Made by a program: the position numbers and the translations under genes | Virus record (IMG/VR): IMGVR_UViG_2541047896_000017 | From: a virus | Lineage: Duplodnaviria > Heunggongvirae > Uroviricota > Caudoviricetes | Length of the DNA: 37,520 nucleotides | Strand: one strand, 5' to 3' | Notes under the pieces: model-generated | What the model saw: only the letters and a program-made list of their open reading frames with translations | Database searches by the model: none | Told to the model about the DNA's origin: nothing | Shown here: positions 724 through 37,520 of the stretch, in pieces | Numbering within the stretch: position 1 is the stretch's first letter | Layout: each line of letters begins with the position of its first letter

Positions 724-1131
724 TCAGATTCCCTCCCAAACTATATATCCTTTGTCTCTTGCCCAACAAACAACTGTGTGGGCTGTATATGTGGATGTGA
801 AGCCGCAATAAGAACATGACACTTCATACCGAGTATTGTAGATGTTAATGGGCTCGTTCTCCTTGTGTATGGGAGTGACATATTCCCAATCATTTGAATC
901 ATCATAATCATCAAGTTCAGGGTCTGTGCCGTGAACAACCGTATGTGGAATAAACAAATCTGGGCGCCCACACGAGAGACAAGAGGTTCTGGCTCCTCTA
1001 TCTTTGAGGAATTGAATAAATAATTTGGGCGAAATCTGTTGCAGAACCTGCAAATGCCCACGTTCATTATCATTAAGAGACCTGTCTGCATATGGAAAAT
1101 CATCAAATTTAAGAGGCTTCATATAAGGCAT
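724..1131 (-). CDS. Hypothetical protein with two CxxC motifs (putative zinc ribbon); start overlaps the last codons of int
   Basis: ORF track frame; ATG at 1131-1129; CLSCG and CSYCG motifs; overlaps int stop (1111-1109), implying co-transcription with C and int. Confidence 0.55.
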   Translation of the reverse strand: MPYMKPLKFDDFPYADRSLNDNERGHLQVLQQISPKLFIQFLKDRGARTSCLSCGRPDLFIPHTVVHGTDPELDDYDDSNDWEYVTPIHKENEPINIYNTRYEVSCSYCGFTSTYTAHTVVCWARDKGYIVWEGI

Positions 1132-2101
1132 CTCCAAGGGGATTAAATCTCACCGCATCCTGCAGGTAATCCGGCGCAAGATGGGCATAAATCATCGTTG
1201 TCTGAATCTTTGCGTGCCCCAAAATTTTCTGGAGGGTCAGAATATTGCCGCCGTTCATCATGAAATGACTGGCGAAGGTGTGGCGCAGCGCATGAACAGC
1301 CTAGCCGTCAGGAACATCAGGTGCGACCGTTTTGATGACATCGCGAACCAATGGATAATCCAGCGTCGGAAACACCAGTTTCCCGCCCCGTTTTTTGATC
1401 TTTTCAAACAGGCTTTCAGAAATAGGAACGGTACGGTTTTTGCTGTTCTTCGTTTTTGAAAAAGTGATTCGACAATGAAGAACACGGCGCTGCTCCAGTG
1501 CCGCTACCTCGCCCCATCGCGCCCCGGTCGACAGAAGGATTTCGACAGCCAGCCGTTCATCGGGATTTTCAGCCAGTGCATCCAGCAACTGAACACATTC
1601 AGACTTACTCAGATATCCCATTTCGCGCTCGTTAACCTTCATTCCTTTAAGGCCTTGAACGGGGTTATCGTTAAGAAAATGGCCGGATGAGATGAGTGCG
1701 GTAAACATCGCGCTTAACGCCCCAATCTCTCGATTAATGGTGCTGGGCTGTATCCCCTGCTCTATCCTGGACACACGTAGCTCGGTGAGCATCGTTGTAT
1801 TAAGTTTATGCACACACGGGTCATCCATTGCCTCACTCAAGCGCAGCAATTTAAGGCGCGTGTTATGCCCTGACTTCATTAGCTGGCCGTGGTATTTCCA
1901 CCACAAGTCAATAAGCACTGACAGAGGACGGCGATCAATAGAGTTTCCTTTCCACTCATTGTTATGCTGTTGCGCCAGCACCCACCGCTCATATAAAACT
2001 GCATCCGATTTCGTTTTAAATTTTTTGCGAATGCGTTTGCCTTTACGCCCCTCAGGGCGCATGTCAAGAAGATACCCTCCCGGAATTGATTTTATGCTCA
2101 T
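1109..2101 (-). pseudogene. int: Tyrosine integrase (P2 Int-like) interrupted by an in-frame TAG at 1303-1301
   Basis: N-terminal 266 codons (MSIKSIPGGY...APDVPDG) then TAG, then same frame continues AVHALRHTFASHFMMNGGNILTLQKILGHAKIQTTMIYAHLAPDYLQ..., i.e. the catalytic R/H/Y region lies after the stop. Recalled P2 Int has Gln at this position. Confidence 0.8.
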
Positions 2102-4452: not shown

Positions 4453-4842
4453 ATGATTGACGCTCATGACTTCACAAGATGGGTGCGCACACAGGACACC
4501 CGTCTGGCTCCCATTCTTCGGGGATTATTTGATCTCTACATTCGTGGTCGTGACAACAGAGCACGCACCACAAAACCGGAGAATGTGGATACCCTTTATT
4601 TCACAGTAGACGACTGCTACCGCGTGGACTTCACACCACACGGACTGGCGTTGCACTGCCTGACACCGCACGGCGAATCACTGCTGGCGTATTACGACTC
4701 CCCGGCCTCCGTATTTGCGGCAATGCTGGCGCATCGCACTGCTGGCGGGTGTGCCTCGCTGAGTGAATACACCGCTGAGTTTAACCGCCTTTCCGCCCTC
4801 TTCTCGCAGGAGTGGCAGCGCGTGACGGGATACCAGCCATGA
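4453..4842 (+). CDS. Hypothetical early protein, translationally coupled to A
   Basis: 129 aa ORF; its stop overlaps the A start (ATGA). Confidence 0.55.
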   Translation: MIDAHDFTRWVRTQDTRLAPILRGLFDLYIRGRDNRARTTKPENVDTLYFTVDDCYRVDFTPHGLALHCLTPHGESLLAYYDSPASVFAAMLAHRTAGGCASLSEYTAEFNRLSALFSQEWQRVTGYQP

Positions 4843-7679
4843 GTGAGTTTGCATGGAGCTGGAATGAACCACGGCCAGCCATTGATCCGGCCAGATTTAC
4901 GGAGCGCAGGCAGGAAACTGAAACCGACCTGCAACGCGCCATCCGTTACTACCTTGAGGCAGACAAAAAGGCCCAGGAAGAACAGGAAGCGAAAGAGGAA
5001 GCCTTTTTCGCACAATCCGCCATGGGTAAAAAACTCATGGCATCCCTTGAGGAAGCCGGACAGCGTGAAAAGCTGGCACAAAGCATCATCAGTAAGCGTC
5101 GGGCAACAGAACAAGACCCGGTGGCCCGTGCCTTTGCCACACTGAAGGTGCTTCCCGTTTATCTGCGAGAACCCCTGAGCCGCCACCTCTCGTTCCTGCG
5201 CAAGAAGCAGGAAGCCGATCGTCAGAAAGGCAAAAAGAGCTGGCAGGCCGAACGCTACGCGCGCGGAAACCTGCGCAAAATATTCGAACGTCTGGAGCGC
5301 ACCGACAGCCGCTGGCTGACACAGGGGTATCGCTCCCTTGCCGGACGCGAACGCCTGGACGATTTGCTTTACCTGCCGCAGCTCAACAAACACCAGATAC
5401 AGACGCTGGCCACCATGACGGCGGCGATGTTCAGCAGCACCTTCGAAAAACTCTGCGATGGCTTTGGCGCGACCGATGGTGAGCTGACCATGGATGTAAC
5501 GCTGAAGGCGTATCAGATGCTGGCCCGCATGGCGTTACACCTGCACGCCATGCCTCCACATTATGACGCACTGACAACAGATAGAGATCGGAGGAACGAA
5601 CCGGACACGGAGCTGCTGCCAGGCGCAATCCTTCGCCTGACCTGTGCTGAATGGTGGAAACGCAAACTGTGGCTGTTACGTTGCGAGTGGAGAGAAGAAC
5701 AACTCCGCGCCGCCTGTCTGGTTTCCAGAAAAACATCGCCCTATCTGAGCCAGGACGCGTTAAGCGAGTTTCGCGCACAGCGCGAGAAAACACGCGATTT
5801 CCTGAAAAGTTTCATGCTGGAAAACGAAGACGGGTTCACGATTGATCTCGAGACAGTGTATTACGCGGGAGTAAGTAACCCGGTTCACCGTAAGGCAGAA
5901 ATGATGGCCACCATGAAGGGGCTGGAACTTCTGGCCGAGGCCCGTGGCGACAAAGCGGTGTTTCTGACTGTCACCTGCCCATCAAAATACCACGCCACAA
6001 CAGAGAACGGTCATCCGAATCCCAAATGGAACGGGGCCACCATGCGCGACTCCAGCGATTACCTGGTTAACACGTTTTTTGCGGCGGTCCGCAAAAAACT
6101 GAACCGCGACGGTCTGCGCTGGTATGGCATCCGCACGGTGGAGCCTCACCATGACGGCACCGTGCACTGGCATATGATGGTCTTTGCTCATCCGGAAGAA
6201 ATCGACAGCATCGTGGCCATCACCCGCGATATTGCCATTCAGGAAGACCGCCACGAGCTGGGCAATGATATTACTCCGCGCTTTAAGGTGGAGTATGTCG
6301 ACGGCTTAAAAGGCACACCAACCAGCTATATCGCGACCTACATCGGAAAAAACCTGGACAGCCGCGCCGTGGATGGCATCGACCCGAAAACGGGCAAACC
6401 ACGCGTTGACCACGAAACCGGAAAATCAATGGCCGAGAGCGTGGAGCGCGCCATCGGCTGGGCGCGCCTTCACCGGGTCCGCCAGTTCCAGTTCTTTGGC
6501 ATCCCCTCCCGTCAGGTGTGGCGTGAACTGCGCCGCCTTGCCAGCCAGATGGCACGCAACCCGGAAGGCCCGCAACGGCTGAAGGATGACGCAATGGATG
6601 CGGTACTCGCTGCCGCTGATGCCGGGTGTTTTGCCTCCTACATTGAAAAACAGGGTGGCGTACTTGTTCCACGCAAGGACTACCTGATTCGCACCGCCTA
6701 CGACCTCGCAGATGAGCTGAACGATTACGGCGAACAGAGCGTACAGATTTACGGGATCTGGTCACCACTCATCGGGGAATCCTCCCGTGTGTGCACGCAC
6801 CCAGATAACTGGAAGCTGGTAAGACGTAAACCGGAAGCGGAAGACAGCACCCGCGAAAATGGTTTTGACCTTCAGGGCGGCCCTGCCGCCCCTTGGACTC
6901 GTGGCAATAACTGTCCCCGTGTACAGGAAACGGACAACAACGGGACAGAACAGCCGGAAGAACGGCCAGCACCGCGGCCGCAGCTTCCTGACGGCGTTGA
7001 CGTGAATGAATGGATGCGCTCACTGAAACGGCACGAACGCCGGGCGCTGATGCATTCGCTGCGTGACAAACAGGCAAAAAACAGCAGTGATGAAATGCAG
7101 AACTGGACACAGAGCCGCAAACAGCCACGGCCTTTGCCTGATAACCACGAGTTACTCGCTAAAGAATGGCGGGAGTCTGCTGAATCTCTCGGCCTGCATA
7201 TCGGTGAACAGCAGATGCAGCACCTGTTACGGGGCGGCAGTCTGTACGTTGACGGCAGCATCATTGCACCGCAGGGATTTGAAATTGTACGCAAACCAGA
7301 TACCCGCCCGGACAGCCGAATCACGCAACTCTGGCAGCGCCTGAGCCGTAATCACGGCGTAAGCAGCACGGAGATCCGCCATAACCCGGTCGCCAGCTAT
7401 CTGGAACAGCTGGGGGCATCAGACCCCGAAGCCGCCGCACACCTGGCATCCACACTTCAGCAGGACCAGAACACCATGAAAACCCCCGTTACCGTGCTTT
7501 CTGACATGCTGCGCGCCATCCGTGACGCAGAGCACGCACAGAGAATCAGTGAAACCACTGAACGCGCCCACCGCAAAGCAGACCTGCTGCGGGGTAGCCT
7601 GACCAGTGGAAACAAAAAACAGACAGAAACGGGACTCACAAATCCCGTAAATGAGCAAAAAACGTGCCGCGATATATGA
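4839..7679 (+). CDS. A: Rolling-circle replication initiator endonuclease, P2 A-like, with long C-terminal extension
   Basis: Contains TVEPHHDGTVHWHMMVF (HUH-like) and YIATYIGKN (paired tyrosines), matching recalled P2 A motifs; about 946 aa versus about 760 in P2. Confidence 0.85.
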   Translation: MSEFAWSWNEPRPAIDPARFTERRQETETDLQRAIRYYLEADKKAQEEQEAKEEAFFAQSAMGKKLMASLEEAGQREKLAQSIISKRRATEQDPVARAFATLKVLPVYLREPLSRHLSFLRKKQEADRQKGKKSWQAERYARGNLRKIFERLERTDSRWLTQGYRSLAGRERLDDLLYLPQLNKHQIQTLATMTAAMFSSTFEKLCDGFGATDGELTMDVTLKAYQMLARMALHLHAMPPHYDALTTDRDRRNEPDTELLPGAILRLTCAEWWKRKLWLLRCEWREEQLRAACLVSRKTSPYLSQDALSEFRAQREKTRDFLKSFMLENEDGFTIDLETVYYAGVSNPVHRKAEMMATMKGLELLAEARGDKAVFLTVTCPSKYHATTENGHPNPKWNGATMRDSSDYLVNTFFAAVRKKLNRDGLRWYGIRTVEPHHDGTVHWHMMVFAHPEEIDSIVAITRDIAIQEDRHELGNDITPRFKVEYVDGLKGTPTSYIATYIGKNLDSRAVDGIDPKTGKPRVDHETGKSMAESVERAIGWARLHRVRQFQFFGIPSRQVWRELRRLASQMARNPEGPQRLKDDAMDAVLAAADAGCFASYIEKQGGVLVPRKDYLIRTAYDLADELNDYGEQSVQIYGIWSPLIGESSRVCTHPDNWKLVRRKPEAEDSTRENGFDLQGGPAAPWTRGNNCPRVQETDNNGTEQPEERPAPRPQLPDGVDVNEWMRSLKRHERRALMHSLRDKQAKNSSDEMQNWTQSRKQPRPLPDNHELLAKEWRESAESLGLHIGEQQMQHLLRGGSLYVDGSIIAPQGFEIVRKPDTRPDSRITQLWQRLSRNHGVSSTEIRHNPVASYLEQLGASDPEAAAHLASTLQQDQNTMKTPVTVLSDMLRAIRDAEHAQRISETTERAHRKADLLRGSLTSGNKKQTETGLTNPVNEQKTCRDI

Positions 7680-7755
7680 AGCGCGCACAAAACAGGCAAA
7701 AGCGGGATTTAAAAATCCTGTAACCGATTAATTAATCAACATAAGGAAAAGCGAC
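7631..7755. promoter_or_regulatory. Candidate parC-like centromere/promoter region upstream of parM
   Basis: Two copies of AAATCCyGTAA (about 7645 and 7709), each inside a short palindrome (ACGGGA..TCCCGT; GGATTTAAAAATCC). Confidence 0.3.
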
Positions 7756-8715
7756 ATGAAAATTTGTATCGACGACGGCTCCACCAACATCAAGCTGGCA
7801 TGGACTGAGAACGGCGAACGCCGCAACGCCATCAGCCCGAACAGCTTCAAGTCGGAATGGTCTGCGCCGTTCGGTGGCACGCAGCCCGCGAACTACATGC
7901 TTGATGGCGTGCGCTATGGTTTTGATCCGGTCAGCGATCGCTTTGTCCAGACGACCGACACGCAATACCAGTACAGCGATGTGAATATAATTGCCATTCA
8001 TCACGCGCTGGTCAAATCAGGCATCACACCACAGGAAGTGGATGTGGTTGTCACCCTGCCACTAAGCGAGTATTTCGATACAAACGCACAGCCGGACATG
8101 GCCAACATCAACCGCAAAAAAGCGAACGTCATGCGCCCGGTGGAGTACCAGAACGGCGAAGCATTCACTATCCGTAACGTACGGGTTATGCCTGAATCCA
8201 TTCCGGCTGGCTTTAAGGCACTGGCTGACATGAGTCCGTTTGAATCCCTGCTGATTGTGGATTTGGGCGGAACCACGCTGGATGTGGCAAAGGTTCAGGG
8301 GCAACTGGCAGGTATCAGCCAGGTGTTTTGCGATCCACACGTGGGCGTTTCTCTGATGGCCGATGCCGTACTGTCGGTGATGGCCACTAACGGTATGCGC
8401 ACCAGTCACCACATCGCCAATACCATTATCGAACATCGCCATGATGAAGCCTGGCTGCGCCAGCACATCCACAATGACGCGCATTACGCCAGCCTGATGG
8501 CGGTAATTCGTGAAAAGGAAGAAACACTGAAACAACGCGTGATCCGCGCGCTGGCGGGTTTTTCGGGTTACGGGCGGGTGATGGTTGTCGGTGGAGGGGC
8601 GGAGATTGTGGCACCCGCTATCCGCGAAGCCTGCGGAGTTAATGCGACTTTCATCGCGGACGGGGTGCCACAGTTTGCTCTGGTTAATGGGCTGTACGCA
8701 ATGGACAAGGAGTAA
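7756..8715 (+). CDS. parM: Actin-like segregation ATPase, ParM/StbA family
   Basis: 319 aa; N-terminus MKICIDDGSTNIKLAW and motifs VMPESIPAGF, LLIVDLGGTTLD, VMVVGGGAE closely resemble recalled plasmid R1 ParM. Confidence 0.8.
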   Translation: MKICIDDGSTNIKLAWTENGERRNAISPNSFKSEWSAPFGGTQPANYMLDGVRYGFDPVSDRFVQTTDTQYQYSDVNIIAIHHALVKSGITPQEVDVVVTLPLSEYFDTNAQPDMANINRKKANVMRPVEYQNGEAFTIRNVRVMPESIPAGFKALADMSPFESLLIVDLGGTTLDVAKVQGQLAGISQVFCDPHVGVSLMADAVLSVMATNGMRTSHHIANTIIEHRHDEAWLRQHIHNDAHYASLMAVIREKEETLKQRVIRALAGFSGYGRVMVVGGGAEIVAPAIREACGVNATFIADGVPQFALVNGLYAMDKE

Positions 8716-8719
8716 ACCA

Positions 8720-9031
8720 ATGACGACTCCAACCAGACGGATAAGTTTCTATCTGAAGCCCACCGCCGTCAAGAACGAAGGAGAAGCATGCGCCTGGCTG
8801 GACAGCCTTACACCAGAAGCCCGCAAAAGCGGCCAACGCGTGGCTTTTCTGGCCGGGCTGGCACTTCTGAAAATGAATCCGGCAGAGGCTTATCGACTGG
8901 CTGCATGGGCTGGTGATGAAGCGTTATCAGTGACACAAACCAGGACAGAACGCCCCGCATCACAGCCAGTATCAACCGCACAGATAACCAGTCAGATGGC
9001 CGGAAATATCCGGGCGTTATTTCCTGAATAA
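8720..9031 (+). CDS. parR: ParR-like centromere-binding adaptor
   Basis: 103 aa immediately downstream of parM; N-terminal RRISFYLKP...LTPEARKSGQRVAFLAGLALL resembles recalled R1 ParR. Confidence 0.6.
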   Translation: MTTPTRRISFYLKPTAVKNEGEACAWLDSLTPEARKSGQRVAFLAGLALLKMNPAEAYRLAAWAGDEALSVTQTRTERPASQPVSTAQITSQMAGNIRALFPE

Positions 9032-9094
9032 CACAACATCAGGGCGAGTTCGCCCTGCTCTCCACCTCAGAACATAAACAAGGAGAACGACTTA

Positions 9095-9685
9095 ATGAGC
9101 GAAATCAACTATCAGGCATTACGTGAACGTTATTCACCTGTGCCAGTACCGAAATGCCCTATTTGCGGCGAGGAAATGTCAATTCAGCGAATATCTGGAG
9201 CACAGGTTGTTTATGCCTGCTCCGGTTATGGTGATGATGGAGATTTCAAAATTGGCCGAACTCTTGCTGACGAACATTATGAAAAATCACGCGTAACAGT
9301 GTTGGATGTCGGGGATCCTGAAGTATTGGCGCTACTTGATTGGCTGGAAACCAAAGACAACCGAATCGCTGAACTGGAAAAAATCGCCACTGACTATGCA
9401 CTTAAATTCCAGAAAGCACAGGACGCATTAAAGCATGCCGCTTTGCTGCATAGCAGGACGGCGCAACAAACAAATAATTTTGCAGTATCGCTTCCGGACA
9501 TAAGCGAATATTTCATTAATGACGTATTTCAGCCCTTGCGATACGAGCGGGATGTTGAAAGAGCCATCATAAAGGCTGGCGGAAAAGCATTGTGGCAGGA
9601 GAAACACGAGGACAGAACGCATCAGTCATGCGATGTAAATTGTGGATGGTTTAGCCCACTGACGACAGATAAAAATAACACCTGA
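9095..9685 (+). CDS. Hypothetical protein with N-terminal Cys cluster (possible zinc ribbon); accessory gene between A and Q
   Basis: 196 aa ORF with RBS aaggaga; CPICGEEMS...YACSGYG motif. Confidence 0.55.
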   Translation: MSEINYQALRERYSPVPVPKCPICGEEMSIQRISGAQVVYACSGYGDDGDFKIGRTLADEHYEKSRVTVLDVGDPEVLALLDWLETKDNRIAELEKIATDYALKFQKAQDALKHAALLHSRTAQQTNNFAVSLPDISEYFINDVFQPLRYERDVERAIIKAGGKALWQEKHEDRTHQSCDVNCGWFSPLTTDKNNT

Positions 9686-9689
9686 TCCC

Positions 9690-10175
9690 CCTCAAACCAG
9701 GGCGATAATCGCACATCGCCCTGCTGCACAATAGTGCACAAATTTGCACAATTTTTTTGAACGAATTTTTGCCCTTCCAGCCCGCGTGGCGGCTGGATCC
9801 GTCAAGGATCCGTGCGTGCACAAAAAAACGCGCTTTTTCTGCGCGCAGGTGACGGGGGAACAGCCCGCGTTTCAGGGGGTAAATAGCGTTCCCTTAACGA
9901 TGTCGCAGCGACACGACAGAATGGCCGTATTTCTCACGCTGAGCGTGAAAAATACGTGAGGGATTCTGATTTGATGGGGTGAAAGGTAAGGCCGTCAAAA
10001 TCGCACTGAGGCGGCGAGAACATGCAGTCAACGCGGTGGGATTGCGTAAGAGTCTGACCGTCGATGGTGGCGATAAACTGGAAGGCGTCGTGAAATTATC
10101 TGACTGATACAGGAGCTGGAGAGTCGGGGCATAAATTTTTTATGCCCCGGCGAAGCAGCAGACAAGCGAAGCGCG
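9690..10175. other. Non-coding region expected to contain the cos packaging site
   Basis: In P2, cos lies adjacent to the 3' end of Q; region has GTGCACAA repeats, GGATCC palindromes and a 22-nt palindrome at 10126-10147. Exact cos not identified. Confidence 0.4.
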
Positions 10176-11222
10176 TCAGGATGTGGGCTGGATGTCTAAC
10201 AGTGCGTAAGGGTTAAAGCGGATCACCTCTTCGCCAAGCCAGTCATTGATGTGCTTCATGGCCTCCATGACGGGCATCAGCTCGTTAATTGCGTAAACCC
10301 GCGCGGCCTTCTCCACATCACCAAACGCACTTTTTTCACCCGGCATCGCCCCCATCAGTTGCGGCGGAACGCGGTGCGCAGCCAGCACATCATCACGGGA
10401 TGCCGCTTTAACATTCATGAACTCATCCTTTGCGGTGATCTGCTGGAACGGCAAAATTTGCACCCCCTCTTTGCCCCCGTTGGGCGCATGAATGAGCACG
10501 TTTTTAAACGCACCACCACCACGCGCACCCTGTAGCGTTTCTTTCAGGGAGTCCATGCTTTCGCGGTTTACCTGCGCTGCACCGATGTAGATGATGCACC
10601 CGGCGTGGGATCCGTTGTCGTAATACAGTTTTCTGAACATGTCCGCCGAATGAGACAGGCTGGCCGAGAGTAATGCGCCGAGATATTCCGGCATGCCGTA
10701 GATTTCCTGGTTAATGTCAGGATTCATCAGGTGACACACTTTGCCTGGGCGAAACTGAAACGCATCCTTGCCATCCTGCACATACCACCATGATTCAAGA
10801 TCGCTTCCGCGTCGCATGTATTTCGCCAGGGCGTGCCGTAATTTAAGCGGTTCGCCGAGCATATTGCTTCGAAGCTCAAGGAATGCGTTACCGAACACAA
10901 ACCAGTCCAGCGCCAGCGCCGAGAAATCCTGCCGGGAAAGCAGCGGGTGCGGGATGTAGCAACCGAGTAATACATTGCGCTTAAAGTAAAGCGCAGATTG
11001 ATGCCAGGACGTTTGCCGGGCAGCTCTTGCCAGACCGTACCAGTCCACCGGGGTTTCATACCACCGCCCGTTATCAGCACAGTACATATTGTCCAGCAGG
11101 TCATGCCCGGTCAGGCGGTAAGGACCATCAAATGTGAATGCACTGAGCGATGATTCTTTCCTGAGCGCATCAGCGAGATCAATGCGTGAACTCATGCGCA
11201 CTTTTTTATTTTTTCTGCTCAT
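10176..11222 (-). CDS. Q: Portal protein, P2 Q-like
   Basis: 348 aa, downstream of terminase ATPase gene on the same strand; size and position match P2 Q. Confidence 0.8.
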   Translation of the reverse strand: MSRKNKKVRMSSRIDLADALRKESSLSAFTFDGPYRLTGHDLLDNMYCADNGRWYETPVDWYGLARAARQTSWHQSALYFKRNVLLGCYIPHPLLSRQDFSALALDWFVFGNAFLELRSNMLGEPLKLRHALAKYMRRGSDLESWWYVQDGKDAFQFRPGKVCHLMNPDINQEIYGMPEYLGALLSASLSHSADMFRKLYYDNGSHAGCIIYIGAAQVNRESMDSLKETLQGARGGGAFKNVLIHAPNGGKEGVQILPFQQITAKDEFMNVKAASRDDVLAAHRVPPQLMGAMPGEKSAFGDVEKAARVYAINELMPVMEAMKHINDWLGEEVIRFNPYALLDIQPTS

Positions 11223-24049: not shown

Positions 24050-24666
24050 TGGCATTCAGAATGAGTGAACAATCACGTACTGTAAAAATTTATAACCTGC
24101 TGGCCGGAACTAATGAGTTTATTGGTGAAGGTGACGCATATATTCCACCTCATACAGGGCTGCCAGCCAATTCTACAGATATCGCCCCACCGGAAATTCC
24201 TGCTGGCTTTGTGGCAGTTTTTAACAGTGAAAATGAATCGTGGAATATTGTTGAAGACCATCGTGGTAAAACGGTCTATGACGTGGCATCGGGGGACGCG
24301 TTGTTTATTTCTGAACCCGGACCGCTACCAGAGAATGTCACCTGGTTGTCGCCAGCAGGGGAGTATCAGAAGTGGGACGGCGTATCCTGGGTGAAGGATG
24401 AGGAAGCAGAAAAACTGTTTCGGATACGGGAAGCGGAAGAGAAAAAGGCAAGGTTGATCCAGGAAGCAACAGATAACATCGCAATTCTGCAGGATGCAGT
24501 TAATCTTGAAATAGCAACAAACGAGGAAAATTCACAACTGGATTCCTGGAGAAAATACAGAGTATTAGTGAGTAGAATTGACACCAGTACAGCTCCGGAT
24601 ATCGTATGGCCAGAGCTGATGAATCAGGGTTATGTGCGGGAGGACGAGCAGATAACTTCAGACTGA
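24049..24666 (+). CDS. G: Tail fibre assembly chaperone, P2 G-like
   Basis: 205 aa immediately after H, start overlaps H stop. Confidence 0.75.
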
Positions 24667-25193
24667 AATTTAGTGATGAATGTTGAATCATCTGGAATAT
24701 CATGCAATACCAATGCATGAGCACCTATTGTGACATTGTTTCCTATACGCACTTTGCCACCAAGAATGGTGGCATTACAACCAATGGTCACATTATGTCC
24801 TATAACAATATCCATATCATTAAAATCACCACGCAGCCCAATAGTTACCCCTGGTTTTATTGAACAATTTTCACCGATTGTTACTTTGTGACCGATAACA
24901 ACACTGTTGAGATAAGAAACATCAAAGCCTTTCCCTATATTTACAGTTAAAGGGACTGTTACATTATATTTATCAAGAATGAAACGTTCTATTTTCCCCG
25001 CAATCTTCCGACAGTATCCGCCTTTATCAAAAAGGTATTTGGCTATGCGCCACCAAAATAAATAACGAACTCTTCTATGTTTTATTGCGCGAACAATTGC
25101 CTTTCGCCAGGAGAAAGGACGCTCGCTACCGATTACTTCATAGTGAATACAATCTTTAAGTTCATTAATATTCATATCTCTATTATTCAGCAT
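24630..25193 (-). CDS. Hexapeptide-repeat (left-handed beta-helix) acyl/acetyltransferase; moron
   Basis: Hexapeptide repeats [14 protein letters not shown] / [33 protein letters not shown]; region visibly AT-rich; convergent 3' overlap with G. Confidence 0.7.
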
Positions 25194-32206: not shown

Positions 32207-32251
32207 GCAACTGGGATGCATTAGTTCAGACACGGGCTAGCATGCTTACGT

Positions 32252-32294
32252 ACGGCACAGAAGCAAACCTAATTGGAGTTTTGCTCTGTGCCTT
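32252..32294 (+). terminator. Putative terminator after D
   Basis: Imperfect hairpin GGCACAGAaGCAAA...TTTTGCTCTGTGCC followed by TTTC. Confidence 0.45.
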
Positions 32295-32416
32295 TCACCG
32301 ATTGGCCAAGTGTAACCCGCCTTACACCAAGACGAATTATAATCGGCAACAATGTCAGTAGTTACTATAAATGTTTATAAACAAAGATTTATTTCTCCGA
32401 AGCTACAAGCACTACA

Positions 32417-33010
32417 CTAAATCTCAGCAATCTTTTTTTTACTGTGCTGTTCTATTATCAACTCTGCTTCCGCTTGGTATTCATGAGCTAACTCTCGAAG
32501 AATTCGGGCAAATCGATGAAAGCCTAGAAGTTCCATTGCATCAGACTTAGTGTGATATTGTTGGGCCAACTCCAATTCCGGTTTACCTTCTGGGTCAACA
32601 ATGTAGACACCACGCGAATTTATTATCGCATTCTTATAACCAGTACGCACTTTATCAAGTTCACGTCTATTCAAAAACTCGGCCAGTTCTGGAAGTATCC
32701 AATGCTCGTCATTTGCAGGGCTAAAAATTAATATGCTTCCAATCCTATGATAAGCAAAATCTAAATGGCCTGACTTTTCGCATTCTGTTTGGACAAAATC
32801 AAACCAGTTATTAAACGCATTGACATCAAACTTGCCTTCAGCATCAACACCCGGAATCTTTTTCCAATCATCAAGTAAATAGAGTGAGTTTTTGGCAATA
32901 TTTATTTCACTTTCAGATAGTTCTTTACTTGCTTTTTGAAATTCTGATCGATACGCATATTGAATGACTTCACAAAAAAAACTGGGTTCACTTGCAAGTT
33001 TTTTCTCTAA
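32417..33010 (-). pseudogene. C-terminal fragment (about 197 codons) of the IS5-disrupted large cargo gene
   Basis: Frame open from the IS5 junction to stop at 32417 with no plausible start codon; in frame with the 34206..36408 part once IS5 and one CTAA copy are removed. Confidence 0.75.
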
Positions 33011-34205
<1,195 letters not shown>

Positions 34206-36408
34206 CTAATACTTGAGGATGCAACGAATCATTAGCCCCCCTGTTAATTACAGGTAGGTATGCCCATTCAATCTTTACTAAGTCGTCATCTGAAACAGTG
34301 TTATCATTTTGAATATAATTCACAAGTTCATTAAATGAGTGAATATCAAACCGCTCAATATTTTCTGTGGTTCTAATTGATTGCAATAGAGCAAGCACAA
34401 CCTTACTGCTATCAACTGAATTATCGATATGCAAAATTTTAGATAAACAATCTATTGCCATCAAGGGACGGTCTACTTTAATCAAGCAGTCTATAGCAAA
34501 ATAAATTTCTTCCGTTGAATCACAGCTGTATGCATTAACAAGAGTATTTTTCCAATACTCGAAAGGAAAATCATCAAATGAAGCGTTTAATGCATCCCAT
34601 GTTTCTTTTTTAAACGGTAACAAAAGAAAAAAAGCAATCTTTTCTTGAGCACTCCAGTCATTAATAACTGTCAACACCCATGATTTTCCTTCTCTGTAGT
34701 TTTTAGCCTGTACATAACCAGAAGCAAGAGAATTTTCCTTTTTAATATCACTAACAATAAGTTTTTTCAGTATATCTAAAGGAATTTCTAGATCTTCTGC
34801 GACCAGGCTACTACCAACAAACTCAGGCCTTTCAATAGATAGAGAGAATTCTAAGACTCCATCAATACCATTAATAGCATATATTTCGCATATTGATTGC
34901 CCTCGTTCTTTTGTCAACCTTTCTTCTTGGTCCCGCCAGTTTCCATTTTCATCAAATAGGAAGTAATTGTTTTGTGCAAAAAGTCGCTTGCTATAAAGCA
35001 TAGGATCTTCGGGCTTCAAGACTGTAGAAACATCTTTGATTTTTTCATTTTGTTCTGGTTGCATTGCCCAATAAGCACCTGAGAATCTTTTGTTTTTGTT
35101 ATAAACTTCTAAACATTTTTCCCACACCGCTAACTTCAATTCAGCACTATCTGTTTTTTTAGAAAAATCATACAATAGTTTAATTGCATCATCGAATTTA
35201 AATGGCGCTAAACTACCAATATTTTCAACTAAATCAACAAGTCTTAATGATGATTTACTTGCCAATTCAATTGTTAATTGAGTGTATATTTCAATCTGAG
35301 TACGGCACTCATCACCCGATGGCCTTTTATTAAAACCGTTAGGAATAAAGTTTCTAAAAGTTGGAATATGTGTGCCAGATGTTACTTGCGTGTTGTTGGG
35401 TAGCAACTGAACTAAAACACGCCATGCTGTATCGGGCCACTCCCTTGCCAATGCGTTGAAAGCAGCAATACGTCTATCTATATCAGCTGTAGTATGAGGA
35501 AGCCATGGTAACAATATGTTGATTATCGAGTTAAGTGGCCTGTTAGCCCAATTGCCACCAGGATCATGGCTATCCAGCTCCCCTAATATTACTAAAGAGC
35601 GAGATAAATAGTTAGGCGCCCAAGCTAATCCTTCAATAGCCCATAGCAGTCCTGTCATATAATTCCGACCTGAAATTCCACCGATACCTTCCTGTGCAAA
35701 AAGTGAATCAAATGGCTTGTCTTGGTGAGATGCAGCATTTTCCACTTCGTCGATAAAACAGTCAGGAGCACTTTCCGCAAGCATAACTTGAATATCTTGC
35801 GTACTAGCCCATAATTGCCAGCTAGAAGCCGAAAAAACCTCTTTAACCACACTTGAGGCGCAATATTGCCCTTTATATTTTGAGCAATTAGTAAGTAACT
35901 CTTGCTTTGTTGCAACTAATGCCAACCCTTCGGATAGTCCTTTCCTTATTAATCGGCTGTGTGGTAAAACCTTCCCATAAATTACTGCTGCATAACGCTC
36001 TTCAGGTGCCAGTTCAAATTGTGGGTCGATAGTTTTAAAAACGGATACAACAGTCGTCCGAAACAAATCCAAATGATCATCGAATAATCTTGACGATACC
36101 GTTTGAAATGTTTGTATTCTATCTTTAAAACTCCAAGAACCTCTCTCATGAATCAAAGGACTATCTTGCATCCCTTCAATTATTCTTAATTTTCGAATCC
36201 AACTGTCATATGACTCACCAATAAGGCTTGTAATTATATCAATATCACCATTATTTTTTTCATCCCAGCAACCGACTAAAACAGCAATCGCTAACTCAGT
36301 CGCATAATCAACATTATCACTATTGTATACAATTAAGTTACCAGCAACATTATGGCCTGGTCCGGTATGATTTTGACTAATTGAACTGCAGCTATGAATG
36401 TTATCCAT
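34206..36408 (-). pseudogene. N-terminal part (about 735 codons) of large AT-rich cargo gene, truncated by IS5
   Basis: ORF-track 743 aa ORF whose last 7 codons plus stop come from IS5; start ATG 36408 (RBS gagg) or GTG 36414. Confidence 0.75.
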
Positions 36409-36413
36409 AGACA

Positions 36414-36776
36414 CTACCTCGTAATTTTATTTCCACCAATATTATCACCAGTGCCACTATGGTTTTGAATAATGACAGTTGCTGCATGAGGTTTTATAGA
36501 CGAGAGTATTTTTTGAATTTCACTACTATCCAATAGTTTTCTTTCAATTGCTATTTCACTCATTTCATCGTTCAAAGACAGTTTTTCAAGCTCTTTAGCT
36601 AAAGCAGGGGCTACAGCCTCATCAACAACCCAATTTTTTAACTTTTCTTTTATTGAAGTTGCAGTAATCGAAACATGATGTTTAAGCATGTCATAAACTA
36701 TGCCAGAAAGTATCGCCGAAGATAAAAAATCCATAACAATTTCCTTTAACGTAAGATATTTACTATCCAGATACAT
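36414..36776 (-). CDS. Small protein (120 aa) tightly coupled upstream of the large cargo gene; unknown function
   Basis: Stop TAG overlaps/abuts the large gene start; AT-rich; C-terminal QNHSGTGDNIGGN motif. Confidence 0.6.
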   Translation of the reverse strand: MYLDSKYLTLKEIVMDFLSSAILSGIVYDMLKHHVSITATSIKEKLKNWVVDEAVAPALAKELEKLSLNDEMSEIAIERKLLDSSEIQKILSSIKPHAATVIIQNHSGTGDNIGGNKITR

Positions 36777-36928
36777 TTTAAATCGAAGAAAGAGCTTTTA
36801 CCACGTATATTTATTGGCTAATAACATGATAACTCGACTATCTGCTATTCGCTTAAAACGAAGTGTTAGTTGGAATTATAGCCAGCACGACCTAGAATAA
36901 CATCAGCACTGCGTTAAGGGAGGTCGCT

Positions 36929-37189
36929 ATGTTCCGTTGCCCGCTTTGTGGCGCATCTGCCCGCATCCGTACCAGTCGTCCGGAAAATGATTCAAATACC
37001 GTGCGGCAAAAGTATTACCAGTGTAACAACCTGGAATGCGGTGTATGCTTCTCAACACTGGAAGCTTTCCATAAATTCACATCGAAACACGCCTCCGGCG
37101 TTCACTCTTCAGAAGGTATCCCGTGGCATGAGCTGCCAGCTTCACACAGGGGAAACAATCAGATGAGTTTGCCTTTACCTCAGGATTAA
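36929..37189 (+). CDS. ogr: Late gene transcriptional activator, Ogr/Delta zinc-finger family
   Basis: MFRCPLCGASARIRTSR...YYQCNNLEC resembles recalled P2 Ogr (CPLC...C..C zinc finger); RBS aagggagg. Confidence 0.85.
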   Translation: MFRCPLCGASARIRTSRPENDSNTVRQKYYQCNNLECGVCFSTLEAFHKFTSKHASGVHSSEGIPWHELPASHRGNNQMSLPLPQD

Positions 37190-37379: not shown

Positions 37380-37520
37380 ATGTCGCAAAAATCGCTTACG
37401 GCCATCACGTTCTGCGTGACGGCAATCCTCATCATCTGGATGCTGCACGGTTCGCTGTGCGAAATACGGATGAGCTTCTGGGGAGCGGAGTTTGCGGCGT
37501 TCTTACAGTGTAAGCAGTAA
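37380..37520 (+). CDS. Hok/Gef-family small membrane toxin (46 aa)
   Basis: Translation MSQKSLTAITFCVTAILIIWMLHGSLCEIRMSFWGAEFAAFLQCKQ; SLCEIR and E(F/V)AAF(L/M) match recalled Hok-family motifs; RBS aaggag; overlapped out of frame by ORF 37199..37513 (Mok-like). Confidence 0.7.
   Translation: MSQKSLTAITFCVTAILIIWMLHGSLCEIRMSFWGAEFAAFLQCKQ

Follow-up and report, generated by a model that had tools for sequence, protein, structure and literature searches.

A ParMRC-like partition cassette in the replication region of P88-like temperate phages and its possible action on the circular phage genome

Between replication gene A and the portal gene of a P2-like phage, contained in a 37,520-nucleotide stretch of virus DNA (IMG/VR record IMGVR_UViG_2541047896_000017, here called the window), two adjacent genes encode proteins of 319 and 103 residues that a preliminary description, made from the letters of the DNA, had likened to ParM and ParR of the type II partition system of plasmid R1. 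We are now virtually certain that this region holds a genuine and intact ParMRC-like (type II, actin-like) set of proteins plus site, and both the positions of the features and their profile matches agree with the type II cassette that had been proposed for the A-to-Q variable locus of this phage (Table 1). The cassette, whose genes we refer to as parMR, belongs as a fixed component to the replication region of P88-like (Xuanwuvirus, Peduoviridae) temperate phages, where it may act on the circular form of the phage genome.

The likeness to R1 ParM runs the entire length of the 319-residue protein, as the preliminary description had it. The two Pfam matches (PF06406, 3.7e-82; PF21523, 1.3e-68) each cover the whole profile, the PHROG match is to family 691 'partition protein' (7e-90), and the alignment with R1 ParM in the PDB (1mwk, E-value of 1.2e-92) takes in residues 2-316. 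Identity to R1-type StbA is 47% over the full length (E-value of 2e-110), and the nucleotide-binding motifs DDGSTNIK (residues 6-13), PES (146-148), DLGGTTLD (169-176) and GGGAE are the same as those of R1 ParM in the alignments. NCBIfam gave only sub-threshold matches to ParM, and none to ParR. From this homology the parM product is predicted to be an actin-fold ATPase that serves a type II partition system as its filament-forming motor. The gene is under strong purifying selection: the protein is 98-100% identical among phages that differ by 3-5% in DNA, and dN/dS against relatives is 0.03-0.16 for parM, compared with 0.15-0.36 for parR and 0.14-0.17 for gene A. Since plasmid ParMs are only 46-52% identical to the phage ParM, and a tblastn search found the phage ParR on no genuine plasmid, the parMR module is a lineage of its own and of long standing rather than a recent capture.

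The 103-residue product matched Pfam PF10784 Plasmid_stab_B (3.1e-23) and PHROG 2515 (1.7e-57). Supporting its earlier comparison with ParR, PF10784 is also the family of R1-type StbB (5.9e-30) and is matched by two other plasmid ParRs, so that the profile searches for ParM/StbA and ParR that had been proposed as a check gave Pfam and PHROG matches for both proteins. Over its N-terminal 67 residues the protein shares 31% identity with R1-type StbB, and a sequence search of the PDB with ParR returned no match. A ParR is expected to bind DNA with one domain and ParM with a peptide, the two being joined by a flexible linker. When 24 ParR alleles of the phage clade were aligned, they showed a conserved N-terminal domain (residues 1-66), a hypervariable linker (residues ~67-93) and a nearly invariant C-terminal NIRALFPE, to which the C-termini of plasmid ParRs can be aligned. 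The protein is therefore best described as a presumed adaptor, with a putative N-terminal DNA-binding and dimerization domain, a linker, and a tail (NIRALFPE) presumed to bind ParM. A ribbon-helix-helix fold is suggested for the N-terminal domain by the Pfam family alone; an AlphaFold2 model of the ParR monomer built from the 24-sequence alignment had low confidence (mean pLDDT of 55, with a helix and not a strand at residues 5-11); it was too poor to search for folds with and was not used.

Upstream of parM, a scan for repeats and inverted repeats found two copies of a 38-nt unit, one at 7613-7650 and the other, 73 bp further on, at 7686-7723, each holding the palindrome CGGGAyT-N4-AATCCyG (7630-7647 and 7703-7720). 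The short repeats that the preliminary description had put forward as a parC-like site are thus real, while the start it assigned to the cassette, 7631, lies within the first palindrome and the unit itself begins at 7613. The first unit is inside the 3' end of gene A, so that palindrome 1 is translated as part of that gene in the window, and the second is in the gap between gene A and parM. Allowing up to one mismatch, the palindrome pattern occurs at these two places only in the window and at none in 100 shuffles, and the self-identity of the 166-bp region at a lag of 73 was reached by none of 2000 shuffles. As the pattern was taken from these same two sites, the figures are supportive but not an independent test. 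Across relatives the arms of the palindromes are kept while the 4-bp spacers vary, and a diverged Hafnia-type locus retains both palindromes and their 73-bp spacing even though its gene A ends inside palindrome 1, so that the site is conserved as DNA and not as coding sequence. A contig scan with ParM yielded three near-identical loci only, and so gave no deep phylogenetic footprint. We consider the paired palindromes a credible parC or operator, to which ParR would bind.

The cassette is closely tied to gene A in both arrangement and distribution. It lies directly behind gene A on the same strand, after a gap of 76 nt, with the Shine-Dalgarno sequence AAGGAA ahead of parM; the start codon of parR is 5 nt past the parM stop, and its own Shine-Dalgarno sequence, AAGGAG, is within the 3' end of parM. 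No terminator-like site was predicted on the plus strand between gene A and parM, and a scan with consensus settings found no plus-strand promoter near parM; with lenient settings the best site scored 7/12 and had its -10 hexamer inside palindrome 2. As parMR follows gene A directly, with neither a terminator in between nor a good promoter of its own, we think that it is expressed with the early/replication genes. Gene A itself is of the P88 type, 940-955 residues long, of which ~430 extend past the Pfam GPA domain (residues 194-518), and the extreme 3' end of this extension is what overlaps the first candidate ParR-site palindrome. Counting matches with at least 80% coverage in complete E. 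coli genomes, we found P88-type gene A in 1323 and parMR in 1277; parMR accompanies ~97% of P88-type gene A copies, and the variable genes lie after parR. These counts indicate that parMR is a near-constant partner of gene A and not swappable hotspot cargo.

Phage P88_4B11 (Xuanwuvirus) matches the 1.7-kb region with 100% identity, and P88, PhiSM and nine other phage records do so with 94.6-97%. RefSeq annotates the E. coli copies as 'plasmid segregation protein ParM' and 'plasmid partitioning/stability family protein', and as a ParM and a partitioning protein are already annotated in P88, P88_4B11, PhiSM and ~1360 RefSeq E. coli genomes, we cannot follow the preliminary description in calling the cassette unexpected. 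Rousset et al. 2022 had likewise remarked on a putative plasmid partitioning system, carried by about one in four P2-like phages, and their tables have hundreds of entries for StbA plus Plasmid_stab_B in the P2 hotspot (PMC9122126). The cassette is thus already annotated and remarked upon in print, and what interest remains lies in its biological role, a modest and tractable question. A 226-kb contig labeled Vagococcus sp. WN89Y (NZ_JBQPOM010000071.1) also holds this enterobacterial prophage region, with a ParM that is 98% identical; contamination or assembly mislabeling is the most likely source.

Because parMR sits directly behind gene A, has no independent expression signals and is tightly linked to one type of gene A, we lean towards a role in which it would act on the extrachromosomal circular phage genome, after infection or after excision. 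ParR dimers would bind the two palindromes, the conserved C-terminal tail of ParR would, by homology to R1, capture the ends of ATP-ParM filaments, and the growing filaments would push paired circular phage genomes apart. This could occur after infection but before integration, or post-excision during gpA-driven rolling-circle replication, and genome copies would be distributed or positioned in such a way that they stay with daughter cells or replication sites, with no stable plasmid prophage formed. For such action by a ParM-like system, once an integrative element has excised and replicates, there are experimental precedents in srpMRC of SXT/R391 and AlpAC of prophage CGP3. Within this role we cannot separate a function in keeping the circle from loss, before integration or after abortive excision, from one in organizing lytic replication.

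Several points weigh against such a role. R1 parC has ten 11-bp iterons; with two units only, the phage site may be a mere autoregulatory operator, and the true centromere may lie elsewhere or be absent. The case for co-transcription with gene A is weak, as it is drawn from the absence of predicted signals. The integrase gene of the window (1107-2100, minus strand) has an in-frame TAG at 1301-1303 (GGC TAG GCT, with CAG in relatives), upstream of the catalytic HALRHTF...Y region, so that this copy may well be unable to excise by its own integrase. It is also not obvious what a phage that kills its cell would gain in the lytic cycle from pushing circles apart. Finally, our literature search found no experiment on ParM of P2-like or P88 phages, only mentions at the level of annotation.

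A rather unlikely alternative is that P88-like phages are facultative plasmid prophages, persisting as low-copy circles instead of, or besides, integrating. A plasmid state was suggested by Rousset et al. 2022 (PMC9122126), and there is a 34,461-bp circular record, pZ1323PEC0009-2 (NZ_CP148288.1, from PLSDB; E. coli from a cat), in which a P88-like genome is complete, with its integrase gene, an intact attP, parMR, hok and a Com/methyltransferase pair. This single circular record could be a true episomal prophage, or it could have arisen by assembly of induced phage DNA into a replicon. A further point in favor is a Hok/Gef-family open reading frame beside ogr, at the end of the window, which is annotated as 'MokW-like host killing' in P88_4B11 and as 'Hok/Gef' in pZ1323PEC0009-2. 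Plasmid R1 carries hok/sok as a stability locus, and the P88 family thus carries counterparts of both R1 stability loci, parMR and the hok-like gene; at gathering thresholds, Rfam found nothing in the window, hok/sok RNA included.

The bulk of the evidence points to integration. Of 5426 complete E. coli genomes, 1362 have the locus, at 1526 chromosomal places versus 2 on plasmids; among 72,556 plasmid records only 7 have it, mostly very large replicons or mislabeled pieces of chromosome. Using an attP probe taken from the circular 34.5-kb copy, we found a contiguous attP in 0 of 432 genomes carrying the pdxB-type attachment region; together with the integrated copies, this makes a stable plasmid prophage unlikely. 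Core E. coli DNA, found in all 5426 genomes, makes up the left 1.1 kb of the window, so the present copy is integrated. PhiSM, which shares the par locus, was found experimentally to integrate at pdxB in K-12 (PMC6456863). The possibility raised in the preliminary description, that the element is a separate circular replicon, does not hold for a copy that abuts core E. coli DNA and whose relatives are nearly always chromosomal. Placing the element among the phage-plasmids was likewise considered and rejected, on the integrated flank, the chromosomal and plasmid counts, the attP result, the integrase gene and the pdxB integration of PhiSM. In P2 biology gene A should be off under repression, so that a plasmid form would not replicate. 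The integrase allele and the integration site of the window differ from those of the pdxB-type relatives, and no att repeats were found between the two window ends, as the window stops at the hok-like gene, still within the prophage and short of attR.

We regard it as improbable, more so than a plasmid prophage, that parMR is accessory cargo of the P2 hotspot, whether using partition incompatibility to interfere with related phages or with IncF-type plasmids that enter the cell, or serving as a defense or fitness factor expressed from the prophage. The A-to-Q locus is where P2-like phages carry tin, old and many defense systems, and the PhiSM paper lists its par gene, ORF35, as 'fitness' cargo. 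However, the cassette matched no PADLOC model, and we rejected its identification as a known defense system; it is not variable, keeping company with nearly all P88-type gene A copies, which sets it apart from defense cargo. Cross-reaction with plasmid systems is also unlikely, since the phage ParM and ParR have diverged from those of plasmids to the extent given above and the palindromes are unlike R1-type iterons. Least probable of all, and in our view very doubtful, is a function in the integrated state on a chromosomal locus, or no function, as the decaying relic of a plasmid-phage ancestor: parM of phage 503458 is in four pieces and the alignment to parM of Salmonella s1 has gaps, but the strong purifying selection on parM and the conserved ParR modules across hundreds of independent prophages speak against a relic, and we know of no type II system that works on a chromosome.

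The remaining features of the window are collected in Table 1. Two GC-rich hairpins without T-runs lie on the plus strand at 9040-9057, after parR, and at 9681-9701, after the Ead/Ea22-like gene; they were flagged solely as minus-strand terminator-like sites. Relative to P88_4B11, the window has a 4.7-kb low-GC insertion (32213-36889) between tail gene D and ogr, which holds an IS5-family transposase gene and genes for a 742-residue protein and a HetE-N domain protein, and which is possibly uncharacterized defense-type cargo at a second variable site. Around the hexapeptide-repeat acetyltransferase gene there is another low-GC stretch (24.5-25.5 kb, with GC dipping to 38-41%), and phage M19 has a glycosyltransferase at the equivalent place. 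The acetyltransferase gene looks like a moron, possibly one for O-antigen modification.

Table 1. Positions of the features discussed in the text (window coordinates)
Feature	Position	Strand	Details
Replication gene A	4812-7679	+	Pfam Phage_GPA, 6.7e-130; rolling-circle initiator, P88 type
Candidate parC-like centromere/operator	7613-7723	+	two 38-nt repeat units
parM	7756-8715	+	319 aa; open reading frame placed as in the preliminary description
parR	8720-9031	+	103 aa; ATG start at 8720
Ead/Ea22-like gene	9095-9685		between parR and the portal gene
Probable cos site	9769/9770		corresponds to the ends of the packaged P88_4B11 record
Portal gene	10176-11222	minus	
Hexapeptide-repeat acetyltransferase gene	24630-25193	minus	beside tail-fiber genes
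IS5-family transposase	33157-34137	minus	in the 32213-36889 insertion
742-aa protein	34183-36414	minus	no Pfam or PADLOC match; in the 32213-36889 insertion
HetE-N domain protein	36414-36776	minus	119 aa; in the 32213-36889 insertion
Hok/Gef-family open reading frame	37380-37520 (window end)	+	46 aa; Pfam 4e-7; after ogr (36929-37186)

Going further than an action on the circular genome, we tentatively suggest, as a possibility to which we give less credence, that P88-like phages use an R1-type ParMRC in their own replication programme, positioning or segregating rolling-circle genomes, with the long gene A protein as partner, while lysogeny is being established or during lytic growth, and that together with the hok-like toxin this might allow a transient or conditional plasmid state. 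The puzzle behind both suggestions is why a phage lineage that integrates, and that about a quarter of sequenced E. coli carry, has kept a plasmid-type segregation motor on which purifying selection is strong. Its answer would tell how temperate phages manage their vulnerable extrachromosomal phase, from infection to integration and from excision to packaging, and would show to what extent the maintenance strategies of plasmids, integrative conjugative elements (ICEs) and phages overlap. P88 and PhiSM are viable and inducible, and they lysogenize E. coli K-12 or can be mutated in their own host, so the system is easily tested. If ParMRC does belong to the phage replication programme, a small temperate coliphage would become a tractable model for the phage cytoskeleton and for the continuum from plasmid to prophage.

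Among known systems, the parMRC locus (parA / stbAB) of R1 and NR1 (IncFII) is closest in composition: the gene order, repeats followed by parM and then parR, is shared, ParM is alike over its full length with its motifs kept, and ParR falls in PF10784 and has a similar C-terminal tail motif. The differences lie in the host, which is a low-copy plasmid for R1 and an integrating P2-like phage here, in ParR, which has 103 residues here and 117-140 in R1-type and plasmid systems, and in the site. The R1 site is made up of A/C-rich direct iterons flanking a strong promoter, whereas the phage cassette has two palindromes 73 bp apart and no strong promoter evident. The sole other phage in a 50,697-record collection with a ParM homolog is D6, whose StbA-type protein is 47.5% identical. 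D6 is a 91-kb phage with E. coli C600 listed as host, which we take to be a P1-like extrachromosomal plasmid prophage, in contrast to the P88 family, which has an integrase and is found integrated. In the Corynebacterium glutamicum prophage CGP3, activation of the prophage induces AlpAC/alpS at an early stage, and the circular phage DNA needs it to replicate efficiently (PMC4446434, PMC5539076); neither the host nor the actin-like family is related to that of the phage ParMR, and the likeness is one drawn by description. The closest functional analogy, in our reading, is srpMRC of the SXT/R391 ICEs, a ParM-like type II system on an element that is normally integrated and has a rolling-circle initiator acting on excision. 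SrpM and SrpR are distant from R1 ParM and ParR, while the phage proteins are close R1 relatives, and the function has been shown by experiment for the ICE, whereas the phage cassette is known here from its sequence. In those elements srpMRC was shown experimentally to be expressed only on element activation and to stabilize the excised circle (PMC4489591).

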